Assembly: GCF_030013205.1 (NCBI RefSeq)
Contig: NZ_CP122648.1
Reading direction: 5' to 3' (one strand)
Source of the DNA: Escherichia coli
GTDB taxonomy: Bacteria > Pseudomonadota > Gammaproteobacteria > Enterobacterales > Enterobacteriaceae
DNA length: 64,000 nucleotides
Shown here piece by piece: positions 36,547-56,160 of this stretch (positions within the stretch are counted from its first letter, which is position 1; every line of letters begins with the position of its first letter). Made by a program: the position numbers and the translations under genes. A model generated the notes under the pieces. That model was not told where the DNA came from. It did no database searches and saw nothing but the letters and a program-made list of their open reading frames with translations.

Positions 36547-36792
36547 ATGACCGATCTCTTTTCCAGCCCTGACCACACACTCGACGCACTTGGCCTGCGC
36601 TGCCCGGAACCGGTGATGATGGTGCGCAAAACCGTGCGCAATATGCAGCCTGGCGAAACGTTGCTGATTATCGCCGACGATCCGGCCACTACCCGCGATA
36701 TTCCTGGGTTTTGTACCTTTATGGAACACGAACTGGTTGCTAAAGAGACGGATGGACTGCCTTATCGTTATTTGATTCGCAAAGGCGGTTGA
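36547..36792 (+). CDS. tusA: sulfur carrier protein TusA
   Basis: 81-aa ORF with conserved CPEP motif ([10 protein letters not shown]). Confidence 0.93.
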
Positions 36793-36812
36793 TGGGGGCT
36801 GATTGGCTTCGA

Positions 36813-36853
36813 TGCCGCCTTTTCCCCTCACCCTAACCCTCTCCCCAGAGGAG
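36813..36853. repeat. GC-rich palindromic intergenic repeat unit (possibly boxC family; name uncertain)
   Basis: cccctcaccctaaccctctccccagaggagcgaggggaccgatcg; near-identical units recur at 55990..56035 and inverted at about 56100..56140. Confidence 0.6.
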
Positions 36854-36893
36854 CGAGGGGACCGATCGCGCTCAATGTTGCGATCGGTTTGCC

Positions 36894-39092
36894 TTATCTC
36901 CTGCGCAACAATCTTAACGCATTCGCTGTTACCAGCACCGTCGCACCCGTATCTGCCAGCACTGCCAGCCACAGCCCGGTCATTCCTAATAGCGTGGTGA
37001 CGAGGAAAACGCCTTTCAGCCCCAGCGCGATAGTGATGTTCTGGCGGATATTGGCGTGAGTGGCGCGTGCCAGTTCAATCATTTGCACCAGGCCGCGCAG
37101 GTGGTTATGGGTTAATGCTGCGTCGGCGGTTTCCAGGGCCACGTCTGTGCCACTGCCCATTGCAATCCCAATAGCGGCGGCTTTCATCGCTGGCGCGTCG
37201 TTAATACCATCACCGACCATCGCCAGCGGCGCATGTTGATTCAGCTCGGTCACCGCTTTGACTTTATCTTCCGGCAACAGGCCCGCTTTAAATTCCAGCC
37301 CCAGTTCCCCGGCAATTGCCGCCGCTGCGCGTGGATTATCGCCGGTGAGGATCACTCCTTTAACCCCCAGCGCGTTAAGTTCACTGATAGCAGTTGCAGC
37401 ATCGGCGCGCAGGGTATCCTGCAATGCAATTACGCCAAGCACGTCATCGTTACGCACTACCAGCACTACCGTTTGCCCGGCGCTTTCCAGTTCATTAATC
37501 AAACCAGCAAATGCAACAGCCGGATGTTTTCCGGCAGCGCATATCAACACGCGCTCACCGTTAACCTGCGCTTCAATGCCAGACCCAACCAGCGCCCGCT
37601 GTGATTCGGCGGCGGGAATGGCGAGTTCAGCAACCTGTGCTTCGCGTACGATGGCTTGCGCCAGTGGATGCGTCGCGCCTTGCTCGACCGCCGCTGCCAG
37701 TGTCAGCAGTTCAGATTCACTAATACCCGTTGCCGGATGAATCGCGGTAACGCGCGGTTTACCGACGGTCAGCGTACCGGTTTTATCAAACGCCACCTGG
37801 GTAACACGACCTAGTTGTTCCAGCGCCGCACCGCCTTTAATCAACGCCCCACGACGCGCTGCTGCTGCCAGCCCGGAGGTAATCGCCGCAGGCGTTGAGA
37901 TAACTAACGCACACGGGCAACCAATCAGCAGCAGCGTCAGCCCTTTATAAATCCACTCTTGCCAGCTGGCGGCAAACAGCAGCGGCGGCACCAGCGTTAC
38001 CAGCAGGGCGACGGCCATAATCGCGGGCGTGTAGATACGGCTGAAACGGTCGATAAACCGCTCAATGGGGGCGCGGCGCTCTTCGGCTTCTTCGATCAGT
38101 TTCAGAATCCGGTCAATGGCGCTGGCACCCGGTTCTGACAGCACTTCCAGCGTTACCAGACGGTCTACGCTGGTGGCACCAGCAGGGACTTTATCGCCCG
38201 TTGCGCGCTCCACCGGAATGGATTCGCCGGTCAGGGCGCTTTCATCAAAACTGGCAAACGGTGAGAGCAGTTTACCGTCGGCAGGCAAACGTCCACCTGC
38301 GGCGACTTCAATCACATCGCCAGGGCGCAGGCTGTTAATCGCCACCTCTTCCCGCTCACCGTTACGCAGGCGCGTGGCGGTTTCTGGTTTCAGCGCCATT
38401 AACGCGCTGACCCCTTGACGTGCGCGGCTGGCGGCCCAGCCTTCCAGTCGTTCACCAATCAAAAACAGCAGCAACACCATCGCAGCTTCAGCCGTTGCGC
38501 CAATAAACAGCGCACCAATAGCGGCTATGCTCATTAAGGTTTCAATGGCGAAGTAACTGCCGGATTTGATCAGCCGTAATGCCTGACGAGCAATTGGGTA
38601 CAGCCCAACCAGCGTGGTCGCGATAAACGCCAGTTGACCGAACGGATGATTAAACTGCTCCAGCCCCCAACTGATTGCCATCATCACGATAAGCGCAATC
38701 AGCGGCAAATTCTCTTTCAGGCGTGATGCTTGCGGTTCGTCGGCGGCCTGTTCATCGCGCAGGGAATAGCCCGCTTTTTGCACCGCAGATTCAACCTGGG
38801 CACGGATGTCATTGTCGGCATCGACCACCAGTTTTTCGGTGGCGAACAGTACCTGCACCTGATTCACGCCTGCAAGCTGGCGCACGGCATTTTCTACCTT
38901 GCGCGCACAGGCGGCGCAGTCCATGCCGCTGACTTTCCAGCTATAGCGGGTGCCGGAGACGTTTTCAGAGAGCGTTGGCGTGCTGGAACATGCGCCGTCG
39001 CAGCAACAGTTGTTGGCGTTCTGTGCCGTGGTTAGCGGTTTGAACGCAGCAAAGTGAGGGGCTTTCTTGCCGTGATTGTCAGGAGTCGACAT
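36894..39092 (-). CDS. zntA: Zn/Cd/Pb-exporting P1B-type ATPase
   Basis: 732-aa ORF; N-terminal metal-binding GMDCAAC, CPC transmembrane motif, DKTGT phosphorylation motif. Confidence 0.95.
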   Translation of the reverse strand: MSTPDNHGKKAPHFAAFKPLTTAQNANNCCCDGACSSTPTLSENVSGTRYSWKVSGMDCAACARKVENAVRQLAGVNQVQVLFATEKLVVDADNDIRAQVESAVQKAGYSLRDEQAADEPQASRLKENLPLIALIVMMAISWGLEQFNHPFGQLAFIATTLVGLYPIARQALRLIKSGSYFAIETLMSIAAIGALFIGATAEAAMVLLLFLIGERLEGWAASRARQGVSALMALKPETATRLRNGEREEVAINSLRPGDVIEVAAGGRLPADGKLLSPFASFDESALTGESIPVERATGDKVPAGATSVDRLVTLEVLSEPGASAIDRILKLIEEAEERRAPIERFIDRFSRIYTPAIMAVALLVTLVPPLLFAASWQEWIYKGLTLLLIGCPCALVISTPAAITSGLAAAARRGALIKGGAALEQLGRVTQVAFDKTGTLTVGKPRVTAIHPATGISESELLTLAAAVEQGATHPLAQAIVREAQVAELAIPAAESQRALVGSGIEAQVNGERVLICAAGKHPAVAFAGLINELESAGQTVVLVVRNDDVLGVIALQDTLRADAATAISELNALGVKGVILTGDNPRAAAAIAGELGLEFKAGLLPEDKVKAVTELNQHAPLAMVGDGINDAPAMKAAAIGIAMGSGTDVALETADAALTHNHLRGLVQMIELARATHANIRQNITIALGLKGVFLVTTLLGMTGLWLAVLADTGATVLVTANALRLLRRR

Positions 39093-45670: not shown

Positions 45671-45888
45671 GGGCCTCTGCAATAATCAGTTTCCCCCTCC
45701 GGCAAAACGCCAATCCCCACGCAGATTGTTAATAAACTGTCAAAATAGCTATTCCAATATCATAAAAATCGGGTATGTTTTAGCAGAGTATGCTGCTAAA
45801 GCACGGGTAGTCATGCATAAAACGAAATAAAGTGCTGAACAACAACATCACAACACACGTAATAACCAGAAGAATGGGGATTCTCAGG

Positions 45889-46992
45889 ATGAATATAAAG
45901 GGTAAAGCGTTACTGGCAGGATGTATCGCGCTGGCATTCAGCAATATGGCTCTGGCAGAAGATATTAAAGTTGCAGTCGTGGGCGCGATGTCTGGTCCGG
46001 TGGCCCAGTACGGTGACCAGGAGTTCACTGGCGCAGAGCAGGCAGTAGCGGATATCAATGCTAAAGGCGGCATTAAAGGCAACAAACTGCAAATCGTAAA
46101 ATATGACGATGCCTGTGACCCGAAACAGGCGGTTGCGGTGGCGAACAAAGTCGTTAACGACGGCATTAAATATGTGATTGGTCACCTCTGTTCTTCATCA
46201 ACGCAGCCAGCGTCAGACATCTATGAAGATGAAGGCATTTTAATGATCACCCCAGCGGCAACCGCGCCGGAGCTGACCGCCCGTGGCTATCAGCTGATCC
46301 TGCGCACTACCGGCCTGGACTCCGACCAGGGGCCGACGGCGGCGAAATATATTCTTGAGAAAGTGAAACCGCAGCGTATTGCTATCGTCCACGACAAACA
46401 GCAGTACGGCGAAGGTCTGGCGCGTGCGGTGCAGGACGGCCTGAAGAAAGGCAATGCTAACGTGGTGTTCTTTGATGGTATCACCGCTGGGGAAAAAGAT
46501 TTCTCAACGCTGGTGGCGCGTCTGAAAAAAGAGAATATCGACTTCGTTTACTACGGCGGTTATCACCCGGAAATGGGGCAAATCCTGCGTCAGGCACGCG
46601 CGGCAGGGCTGAAAACTCAGTTTATGGGGCCGGAAGGCGTGGCTAACGTCTCGCTGTCTAACATTGCGGGTGAATCAGCGGAAGGACTGCTGGTGACCAA
46701 GCCGAAGAACTACGATCAGGTTCCGGCGAACAAACCCATTGTTGATGCGATCAAAGCGAAAAAACAGGACCCAAGCGGCGCATTCGTCTGGACCACCTAC
46801 GCCGCGCTGCAATCTTTGCAGGCGGGTCTGAATCAGTCTGACGATCCGGCTGAAATCGCCAAATACCTGAAAGCGAACTCCGTGGATACGGTGATGGGGC
46901 CGCTGACCTGGGATGAGAAAGGCGATCTGAAAGGCTTTGAGTTCGGCGTATTTGACTGGCACGCCAACGGCACGGCGACCGATGCGAAGTAA
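45889..46992 (+). CDS. livJ: periplasmic Leu/Ile/Val-binding protein
   Basis: 367-codon frame [18 protein letters not shown]... with signal peptide; the ORF-track upstream extension is rejected. Confidence 0.93.
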
Positions 46993-47065
46993 TCATTAAT
47001 CGGCAACTTTGGGTTGCCGCCAAATTGCTAATATCGAGTACGTTGCTTCATGCCGGATGCGGCGT

Positions 47066-47822
<757 letters not shown>

Positions 47823-48457: not shown

Positions 48458-48500
48458 CTTCAGATGTCAGATTGTGTCCAACATTTGGGGTGCAGTTCAG

Positions 48501-48600
48501 TAAACGCCTTATCCGGCCTACAAGATCCAAAGAAATCAGTAGATTGCAACACACGTTGTAGGCCTGATAAGCGTAGCGCATCAGGCAATTTCTCGTTGGT
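48501..48600. repeat. REP/BIME cluster (right half of the IS150-interrupted REP plus a second unit)
   Basis: acgccttatccggcctac ... gtaggcctgataagcgtagcgcatcaggc. Confidence 0.8.
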
Positions 48601-49011: not shown

Positions 49012-49434
49012 GGGGAACCCGTGTAAATCACAAAAGTGGAACCAGTGTAGCGAAATAATTTAATCGGAGGCTTTCTCTTTTTTATTTCTTTTGGCAGGTG
49101 ATTAATTTTTTAACAGCAATAATTACAAAGTTAAAACATTATAGAATGAAAAATACCCAGCATAATCCCCTGAATGATAGTGAATTATTCCGCCCTTTAT
49201 GCCGTTATTTTATGCTGACAACGGCGCTTTTTTCTGTTTATCTATCAATAAATTCAGAATATTATCTGTTCTTAATCGACTGAAAAATAGGGATTTTAAT
49301 CGCTATCATCACAAAATACTGCGCTAAACCCTTAATCAGACAGGCAAAAACAGTGCAGTATAAAAAAAGAACAGTCTGATTTGTTAACACATAAGAACAA
49401 AGCAACACAACATCACGAATGGGGATTTTTGACT

Positions 49435-50544
49435 ATGAAACGGAATGCGAAAACTATCATCGCAGGGATGATTGCACTGGCAATTTCACACACCGCTATG
49501 GCTGATGATATTAAAGTCGCCGTTGTCGGCGCGATGTCCGGCCCGATTGCCCAGTGGGGCGATATGGAATTTAACGGCGCGCGTCAGGCGATTAAAGACA
49601 TTAATGCCAAAGGGGGAATTAAAGGCGATAAGCTGGTTGGCGTGGAATATGACGACGCCTGCGACCCGAAACAAGCCGTTGCGGTCGCCAACAAAATCGT
49701 TAACGACGGCATTAAATACGTTATTGGGCACCTGTGTTCCTCCTCTACCCAACCTGCATCAGATATCTATGAAGACGAAGGTATTCTGATGATCTCGCCG
49801 GGAGCGACCAACCCGGAGCTGACCCAACGCGGTTATCAACACATCATGCGTACTGCCGGGCTGGACTCTTCCCAGGGGCCAACGGCGGCAAAATACATTC
49901 TTGAGACGGTGAAGCCCCAGCGCATCGCCATCATTCACGACAAACAACAGTATGGCGAAGGGCTGGCACGTTCGGTGCAGGACGGGCTGAAAGCGGCTAA
50001 CGCCAACGTCGTCTTCTTCGACGGCATTACCGCTGGAGAGAAAGATTTTTCCGCGCTGATCGCCCGCCTGAAAAAAGAAAACATCGACTTCGTTTACTAC
50101 GGTGGTTACTACCCGGAAATGGGGCAGATGCTGCGCCAGGCCCGTTCTGTCGGCCTGAAAACCCAATTTATGGGGCCGGAAGGTGTGGGTAATGCGTCGC
50201 TGTCGAACATTGCTGGCGATGCTGCCGAAGGCATGTTGGTCACTATGCCAAAACGCTATGACCAGGATCCGGCAAACCAGGGCATCGTTGATGCGCTGAA
50301 AGCAGACAAGAAAGATCCGTCCGGGCCTTATGTCTGGATCACTTATGCGGCGGTGCAATCTCTGGCGACTGCCCTTGAGCGTACCGGCAGCGATGAGCCG
50401 CTGGCGCTGGTGAAAGATTTAAAAGCTAACGGTGCAAACACCGTGATTGGGCCGCTGAACTGGGATGAAAAAGGCGATCTTAAGGGATTTGATTTTGGTG
50501 TCTTCCAGTGGCACGCCGACGGTTCATCCACGGCAGCCAAGTGA
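49435..50544 (+). CDS. livK: periplasmic leucine-specific binding protein
   Basis: 369-codon frame [23 protein letters not shown]...; paralog of livJ. Confidence 0.93.
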
Positions 50545-50591
50545 TCATCCCACCGCCCGTGAAATGCGGGCGGGTTTAGAAAGGTTACCTT

Positions 50592-54299: not shown

Positions 54300-54440
<141 letters not shown>

Positions 54441-55985: not shown

Positions 55986-55989
55986 TTCT

Positions 55990-56140
55990 CTTACCCTCAC
56001 CCTAACCCTCTCCCAAAGGGAGAGGGGACCGATCGGCGTGGTATCCAGGTGCCGTGTCGGTTTGCAACTTCGCTCGGTGGGAAAGTATGCACCGCCTTTC
56101 TCCCTCGCCCCTCTGGGGAGAGGGCCGGGGTGAGGGGAAC
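55990..56140. repeat. inverted pair of GC-rich palindromic repeat units in the ugpB-ugpA spacer
   Basis: ccctcaccctaaccctctcccaaagggagagggg at the left and ctccctcgcccctctggggagagggccggggtgagggg inverted at the right, about 65 bp apart; same unit as 36813..36853. Confidence 0.65.
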
Positions 56141-56160
56141 ACAACACGAAGAGTTTAACT

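Follow-up and report, generated by a model that had tools for sequence, protein, structure and literature searches.

Our analysis identifies the GC-rich repeat unit between tusA and zntA in a 64,000-nt stretch of an Escherichia coli genome (contig NZ_CP122648.1 of assembly GCF_030013205.1; hereafter the window) as a copy of the BoxC element that has already been catalogued, and the feature is therefore not new. The copy lies within the 3′ untranslated region (UTR) of tusA, where it probably has a REP-like role at the RNA level, at the 3′ end of the mRNA. BoxC is a GC-rich intergenic repeat of E. coli and its relatives among the Enterobacteriaceae, without a demonstrated cellular function. It is reportedly treated in work by Bergler/Bachellier in the 1990s and by Hoyne and Maher in 2000-2002. 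Hoyne and Maher came upon the repeat anew and called it the PIT (potential intrastrand triplex) element, and Holder et al. 2015 (PMC4666352) gave it the further name TMECO.

The unit sits where a sequence-only reading of the window had placed it in relation to the genes, in the 101-nt spacer between the stop of tusA at 36792 (coding sequence 36547..36792, plus strand, 81 aa) and the stop of the convergent zntA at 36894 (36894..39092, minus strand, 732 aa), both genes being taken from the list of open reading frames and the MG1655 annotation. The spacer is 100% identical to that of many E. coli strains. The quoted 45-nt unit has a single exact occurrence in the window, on the plus strand at 36824-36868; the range of 36813-36853 that the earlier reading had given for it was wrong, lying 11-15 nt too far to the left. 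Within the unit the BoxC core, of type A, occupies 36824..36859 on the minus strand, which reads CCCTCGCTCCTCTGGGGAGAGGGTTAGGGTGAGGGG from 36859 to 36824. This core matches TMECO no. 16 at 35 of 36 positions and aligns with 25 other copies of the family. TMECO no. 16 is the type A element with one mismatch at MG1655 3,608,684-3,608,719, CCCTCGCCCCTCTGGGGAGAGGGTTAGGGTGAGGGG (Holder et al. 2015 Table 1, PMC4666352). The zntA and tusA genes of MG1655 (NC_000913.3) end at 3,608,649 and 3,608,751, so that the distances to the stops are the same for TMECO no. 16 and for the window unit, 35 nt on the zntA side and 32 nt on the tusA side, and the two spacers are 97% identical over 131 nt including the flanks. 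The matching core, the equal distances and the alignment of the spacers together establish the window unit as the ortholog of TMECO no. 16, and the name boxC, tentatively put forward from the letters of the window, was the right one.

The core has the three-block anatomy of its family. Read on the minus strand, a C-arm, CCCTCGCTCC (36859-36850), is followed by a first loop, TCT (36849-36847), a first G-rich arm, G1, GGGGAGAGGG (36846-36837), a second loop, TTA (36836-36834), and a second G-rich arm, G2, GGGTGAGGGG (36833-36824). The tusA transcript corresponds to the C-rich strand of the element. We aligned the 23 copies of MG1655, which come from 18 sites, with the three copies of the window, and in this alignment of 26 copies, with the window copy in register, the core columns are at least 90% conserved and the conserved block is longer than the 36-nt triplex motif. 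On the zntA side it takes in a family flank, GAGCGCGATCGGTC (36860..36873, minus strand), with a consensus of approximately GnGCnC(3-4 nt)GGTC ahead of the CCCTC of the core; on the tusA side the flank AAAAGGCGGCATCG (36810..36823, minus strand) is partly conserved and follows a looser consensus of approximately AAcAGGCcnGCAc. Both consensus flanks are common to the type A copies. Copies of type B carry a CCG second loop and a TTTTCT 5′ flank, and inverted pairs of types A and B are found in the ugpB-ugpA spacer of the window as well as at five sites in MG1655.

The family is dispersed and almost universal in the species, with matches to a 55-nt query in 5,425 of 5,426 complete E. coli genomes, where the number of matching places runs from 1 to 32 per genome with a median of 18, and the unit is thus far from unique to the two loci at which it had been noticed in the window. 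Enterobacter asburiae has approximately 143 copies. A search of 36793-36893 for the REP consensus palindrome, (T)GCCGGATG...CATCCGGC(A), found no REP-like sequence. Genuine REPs, which we see in the tusA-zntA alleles of strains CRE287 and 2016C-3878, in the ugp spacer of K-12 and in the spacers of Citrobacter and Klebsiella, are unrelated in sequence to BoxC, which together with the copy number bears out the earlier view of a dispersed repeat family distinct from REP. The 23 copies catalogued in MG1655 (Holder et al. 2015 Table 1, PMC4666352) occupy 18 intergenic sites, seven of them between convergent genes, nine between tandem genes and two between divergent genes; 16 of the 18 lie downstream of at least one gene, and most BoxC copies are thus transcribed downstream of a gene.

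The other two copies in the window form an inverted pair in the ugpB-ugpA spacer. The first, found by core search and motif match, is of type A with perfect arms and a strict TMECO motif (55994..56026, minus strand); the second is of type B, with the CCG second loop (56102..56136, plus strand). The 21-nt core CCTCACCCTAACCCTCTCCCC recurs at 55995 on the plus strand with one mismatch and at 56115 on the minus strand with three, and 100 shuffles of the window yielded no match at all. Over the 45-nt unit the identity amounts to 40/45 with two 1-nt gaps for the type A copy and 36/45 for the type B copy; these figures clearly place all three in the same family, and the description of the tusA-zntA unit as nearly identical to those at ugpB-ugpA was overstated. 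The inverted pair (55986-56160) is itself a minority allele: a 701-nt query across it is covered to at least 80% in only 317 of 5,426 E. coli genomes. The K-12-type ugpB-ugpA spacer is shorter and has a REP instead of the BoxC pair, which accounts for the lack of a ugp copy in Holder's MG1655 catalogue.

The window also contains repeats of other kinds. A 66-nt direct repeat, ATGAACTGA.C.CCAAAACCTGGACAGTTTCAGTTAACCGGC..., is present at 19077-19142 and 47067-47132, 28 kb apart and with 97% identity, and one copy begins at the end of a REP-like sequence (19030-19077). Two inverted arms of 101 nt, 48500-48600 and 54319-54419, lie 5.7 kb apart with 83% complementarity; they contain the REP-like TAAACGCCTTATCCGGCCTAC and resemble repeats of the BIME type. 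Longer direct repeats, 45876-46996 and 49422-50548, are approximately 71-73% identical at a spacing of 3,546 nt, which is consistent with paralogous genes, presumably the genes upstream of the ugp operon for binding proteins of the livJ/livK type.

Alignment of the tusA-zntA copy with MG1655 reveals a C-to-T change in the C-arm at 36852 (minus strand; the plus strand has A where MG1655 has G). The strict TMECO motif is CCCTCNCCC-N3-6-GGGNGAGGG-N3-GGGNGAGGG, and the C-block of the window copy, CCCTCGCTC, has T at its position 8, so that this copy falls outside the pattern. As a regular expression the strict motif has two matches in the window, both of them ugp copies, and it also matches the MG1655 ortholog; the window copy is thus a mutated form of a motif-positive locus. 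In the G-rich strand, which is the zntA sense, the T forms a T.G (in RNA, U.G) pair, while in the tusA-sense strand the change produces a C.A mismatch. The predicted folding energy of the BoxC hairpin is accordingly -14.9 kcal/mol with the T allele against -18.5 kcal/mol with the C allele in the tusA sense, and -21.7 against -23.5 kcal/mol in the zntA sense. An exact 55-mer with T is present in 2,645 records and its counterpart with C in 1,843, which makes the pattern-breaking T allele the commonest among sequenced E. coli. That the commonest allele weakens the tusA-sense hairpin counts against a role of the element in RNA.

The 3′ end of the tusA mRNA lies at a second structure that adjoins the element. 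A perfect 9-bp hairpin, ACCGATCGC-(10 nt)-GCGATCGGT, is predicted at 36861..36888 on the plus strand, with an RNA folding energy of -18.1 kcal/mol (z = -4.1), and the predicted structure of either strand includes it; a U-rich tail, TTTGCCTTAT(C), follows it directly at 36889..36898 (plus strand) and overlaps the last codons of zntA. The left (5′) arm of this hairpin is the conserved BoxC flank and its right arm is specific to the tusA-zntA locus. In a transcript of zntA this hairpin would come first and the G-rich strand of BoxC after it. Expression of zntA is weak in the absence of metal induction, and the lack of a listed end for it therefore says little. No zntA-sense 3′ end is listed in Supplementary Data 3 and 4 of PMC10687069, the same tables in which TRS analysis of RNAtag-seq places the tusA 3′ terminus of MG1655 at 3,608,646 on the minus strand, with adjusted p-values of 7e-32, 5e-60 and 3e-24 in three libraries, the label 'Distant primary' and a 3′ UTR of 106 nt. 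Transferred to the window, the terminus falls at 36897, which gives a 3′ UTR of approximately 105-106 nt and lies 9 nt past the stem of the hairpin, after the tail UUUGCCUUAU, and 38 nt beyond the BoxC core. The core is therefore inside the tusA 3′ UTR and the RNA ends at the second hairpin: at this locus the core is a passenger, and only its flank joins the end-forming hairpin, as one of the two arms. Catalogued, and lying in a 3′ UTR beside the hairpin at which the transcript ends, the copy is thus ordinary. Among the 3′ ends listed from the Term-seq of Adams et al. 2021 none falls in the spacer, the genes being weakly expressed.

From these observations we propose a model in which tusA RNA would read through the BoxC core and end 9 nt past the adjoining hairpin and its tail, and in which the two adjacent GC-rich stem-loops would define and protect the 3′ end of the mRNA in the manner of REPs. 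The means could be weak intrinsic termination at the second hairpin, stalling of a 3′-to-5′ exonuclease, or both, and zntA would probably be served in the same way from the opposite side. The position of the tusA end is mapped in MG1655; that the hairpins cause it, whether it originates by termination or by trimming, and that zntA is affected at all are what we infer from it. The reading of the element itself as a bidirectional terminator or stabilizer, made from the sequence of the window, divides accordingly. A true bidirectional intrinsic terminator was considered and rejected, since no U-tract follows the BoxC hairpin on either strand and PIT elements had neither promoter nor terminator activity in the reporter assays of an earlier study, as related by Holder et al. 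(PMC4666352). A stabilizer-like role is plausible for the family, as RNA 3′ ends lie 7-12 nt past BoxC hairpins elsewhere. As to the suggestion that the 3′ ends of both transcripts be examined, the MG1655 data supply that of tusA and list none for zntA.

It is also conceivable that the element is inert, a selfish or passively spread repeat that has come to rest in a tolerant convergent spacer, with the neighboring hairpin alone setting the tusA 3′ end. We regard such a neutral relic as unlikely. It would accord with the presence and absence of the core among E. coli strains and related species with no obvious consequence, with the negative reporter assays, with the destabilizing substitution in the commonest allele and with the distance from the core to the tusA end, and the genes that neighbor the copies have no bias of functional class or orientation (Hoyne and Maher; Holder et al., PMC4666352). 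An inert repeat would fit less well with the extreme sequence conservation among some 18-30 copies per genome and across genera, with an end-forming hairpin that takes one of its arms from the BoxC flank, or with the recurring RNA 3′ ends, whose distance from the hairpin is reproducible at several of the other copies.

These recurring ends, present at some eight other copies, came from looking up the genes that flank MG1655 copies in the Supplementary Data of PMC10687069. In the tables of that study, RNAs that carry the C-rich strand have 3′ ends a short way past the core at hrpB (+7), alx (+8), pstA (+10), frlR (+11) and aaeR (+12), and hemB, likewise a C-strand RNA, has ends at +4 and +17. 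Among RNAs that carry the G-rich strand, those of tldD (3,390,499) and ppiC (3,959,463) end 8 nt past the hairpin formed by the C-arm and G1, and tldD has a further end at 3,390,482, +12 nt past the core (PMC10687069). The element between aaeR and tldD thus marks the ends of both convergent transcripts. The adk and gcvP RNAs end at canonical terminators of their own, and that of gntP ends approximately 65 nt past the core at a REP-like sequence, with no end at the BoxC element in any of the three. By a rough estimate, the chance expectation in stretches as short as these is far below one terminus, given a few thousand termini over 9.3 million strand positions. A spacing of +7 to +12 is expected where a 3′-to-5′ exonuclease stalls at a stable stem, and equally from termination. 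Given that the reporters were negative and a U-tract is lacking, the better reading is that the RNA is trimmed as far as a protective hairpin, as happens with REP. In the literature searched, no paper linked BoxC to RNA 3′ ends and no follow-up work on TMECO was found.

The 5′ ends reported at the same elements have a bearing on a further explanation. Inside the 5′ arms of four BoxC copies the dRNA-seq data record a 'TSS', at 164,551, 3,239,603, 497,850 and 3,608,702, the last of which corresponds to window position 36841 (PMC10687069 Supplementary Data 4); three of the four lie directly after CCCT. Taken at face value, the one at 36841 would start an RNA of approximately 57 nt that runs from inside BoxC to the tusA terminator at 36897, and the region would then encode an internal promoter or a regulatory small RNA derived from the 3′ UTR. 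The start precedes the tusA 3′ end by no more than 150 nt, the 3′ UTR has approximately twice the read density of the tusA coding sequence (PMC10687069), the fragment folds at -26.1 kcal/mol (z = -3.3), and Rfam gives a weak match to the Hfq-regulated small RNA Hrs13. We nevertheless consider a small RNA of this kind very improbable. The promoter scan found no sigma-70-like promoter in the region, tusA is not an outlier for over-representation of its 3′ UTR (PMC10687069), and the Hrs13 match scores 19.7 bits, far below the gathering score of 52. Across the tusA-zntA and ugp spacers the Rfam search returned sub-threshold matches only (Hrs13, whalefall-1 at 17.7 bits and others) and no curated RNA family. 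An internal promoter is unlikely because the 'TSS' recurs at the equivalent position in the hairpin arm of the other copies and no promoter hexamers accompany it; the same recurrence suggests that these are probably 5′ ends that resist exonuclease under the protection of the structure and were mis-scored as start sites.

Taken together, the ends on either side suggest a wider role for the family, which we advance tentatively and with somewhat less than even confidence: BoxC, hitherto seen as functionless or as a triplex 'instability' motif of DNA, may act mainly at the RNA level, as a second REP-like class of stem-loops that define and stabilize 3′ ends independently of orientation, with discrete 3′ ends 7-12 nt beyond them on both strands and protected 5′ ends in the 5′ arm, the tusA-zntA copy forming one half of a composite, bidirectional 3′-end module. 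A role in RNA at tusA-zntA gains support from other genera, in which the same spacer holds REPs or BoxC-type hairpins.

At least 5,148 of the 5,426 E. coli genomes share the 101-nt arrangement found here. In strain CRE287 a longer flank and three REPs come after the BoxC, and strain 2016C-3878 is without the core, retaining GGACCGATCGCGCTCAAT..GCGGCTTGCAACCGGTTTG followed by REPs and an open reading frame for a hypothetical protein of 102 aa; the GTDB representative of E. coli has no BoxC in a tusA-zntA spacer of 815 nt. In a scan of TusA loci covering 80 species, E. albertii proved to have only a truncated core, accompanied by the long flank, a REP and the small open reading frame just mentioned, and a Pseudocitrobacter MAG to have type A in full, likewise with that flank. 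Enterobacter species have either a type B copy 13-26 nt past the tusA stop or remnants that consist of the hairpin only; REPs occupy the spacer in Citrobacter, Klebsiella, Kluyvera and Lelliottia, and Pantoea and Kosakonia have hardly any spacer. The common E. coli allele corresponds to the long, ancestral form of the flank minus 7 nt (GCTTGCA), with the segment of REP and open reading frame also absent, and it was the loss of GCTTGCA that created the perfect 9-bp stem. Signs of mobile-element insertion, namely a target-site duplication and a clean empty site, were sought by comparing 2016C-3878 with the filled alleles, which differ by a ragged replacement (GGCTAGC) and not by a clean excision. 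The natural alleles without a core, in 2016C-3878 and the GTDB representative, indicate that the core is dispensable, which speaks against a role in RNA.

The 102-aa hypothetical protein of these alleles is hydrophobic (WP_000385055.1, at 548-856 of the 2016C-3878 locus sequence), and its reading frame lies with REPs between tusA and zntA in E. albertii and the GTDB E. coli representative as well, the latter having a second small open reading frame downstream of tusA. The segment that carries the 102-aa frame is absent from most E. coli genomes.

Variation of this kind would also be expected if the element acted in DNA, as Holder et al. 2015 (PMC4666352) have proposed. The G-rich strand would then fold into an intrastrand purine-motif triplex, with the C-arm and G1 as the duplex and G2 as the third strand, which would transiently stall replication or repair and destabilize the spacer. 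Oligonucleotides of the consensus types indeed form very stable triplexes in vitro, with a Tm of 70-82 °C, by CD and NMR, and TMECO loci vary more between strains than control sites do (PMC4666352). The polymorphism of the tusA-zntA locus, with the extra REPs of CRE287, the deleted core of 2016C-3878, the 815-nt spacer of the GTDB representative and the truncated core of E. albertii, agrees with that variability, without implying that the element caused it, and the restriction of the ugpB-ugpA pair to a minority of genomes points the same way. Against this, in vivo DMS footprinting does not support stable formation of the triplex, the oligonucleotides form a duplex when the complementary strand is supplied, and an earlier study found replication and conjugation unaffected in vivo (all per PMC4666352). 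The prevalence of the 101-nt arrangement argues that the site is not strikingly unstable, and spacers that contain REPs are variable too, so that variability need not stem from a triplex. The T allele, moreover, adds a T.G pair as a second mismatch in the duplex arm, which by inference should lower the stability of the triplex. On balance we judge action at the DNA level to be quite unlikely, and favor the REP-like role in RNA.

For annotation, the consequence is a label for the spacer that names both the BoxC/TMECO copy and the tusA 3′-end hairpin, which matters little for a family known since the early 1990s. Combining the repeat catalogue with public maps of 3′ ends suggests something broader, that BoxC hairpins mark the ends of mRNAs in both orientations. 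If true, this would give an 'orphan' element a REP-like role in RNA, and could explain why its copies accumulate behind genes.

A comparison with known systems highlights what is particular to the locus. The unit resembles the published BoxC/PIT/TMECO elements in its succession of C-arm, G-arm and G-arm blocks, its TTA second loop and its type A sequence with one G.A mismatch, and in being intergenic and multi-copy, with inverted A+B pairs that also occur in the ugpB-ugpA spacer of the window. It differs in the extra C-to-T change of its C-arm, which makes it 'TMECO mutated' in the terms of Holder et al., and the 9-bp hairpin and U-rich tail are specific to the locus and lie outside the family. 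With intrinsic terminators the adjoining hairpin shares a strong stem (9-12 bp, -18 kcal/mol), the UUUGCCUUAU that follows and an RNA end at +9 nt, which is the usual distance. It departs from them in an interrupted U-tract, whose longest run of U is 3, and in its loop of 10 nt; the promoter and terminator scan called nothing in the spacer, and a simple terminator scan passes over this hairpin because its loop exceeds 8 nt. The BoxC core departs further, lacking a U-tract in both directions and having tested negative in the published PIT reporters. The resemblance to Hrs13 (Rfam RF02631) extends over the full model at 36811-36894 on the plus strand, with two hairpins of which the second reads CCGAnCGC...GCGnTCGGUUU; at E = 0.012-0.035 and a score well under the gathering value the region is not a member of that family, and the likeness is mostly that of a terminator-like hairpin.

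The closest parallel is with the REP/BIME sequences. The two families differ in that BoxC has no sequence similarity to REP, contains a third G-rich block that confers an asymmetry of the strands which REP lacks, and numbers approximately 20 copies against several hundred for REP; no transposase (RAYT) is known to be associated with BoxC. REPs protect upstream mRNA from 3′-to-5′ exonucleases. Like them, BoxC is GC-rich, imperfectly palindromic and intergenic, is concentrated at the 3′ ends of genes and between convergent genes, is transcribed, and forms stem-loops that coincide with the 3′ ends of mRNAs, and it is REPs that fill the same tusA-zntA spacer in Citrobacter, Klebsiella, Kluyvera and some E. 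coli alleles.
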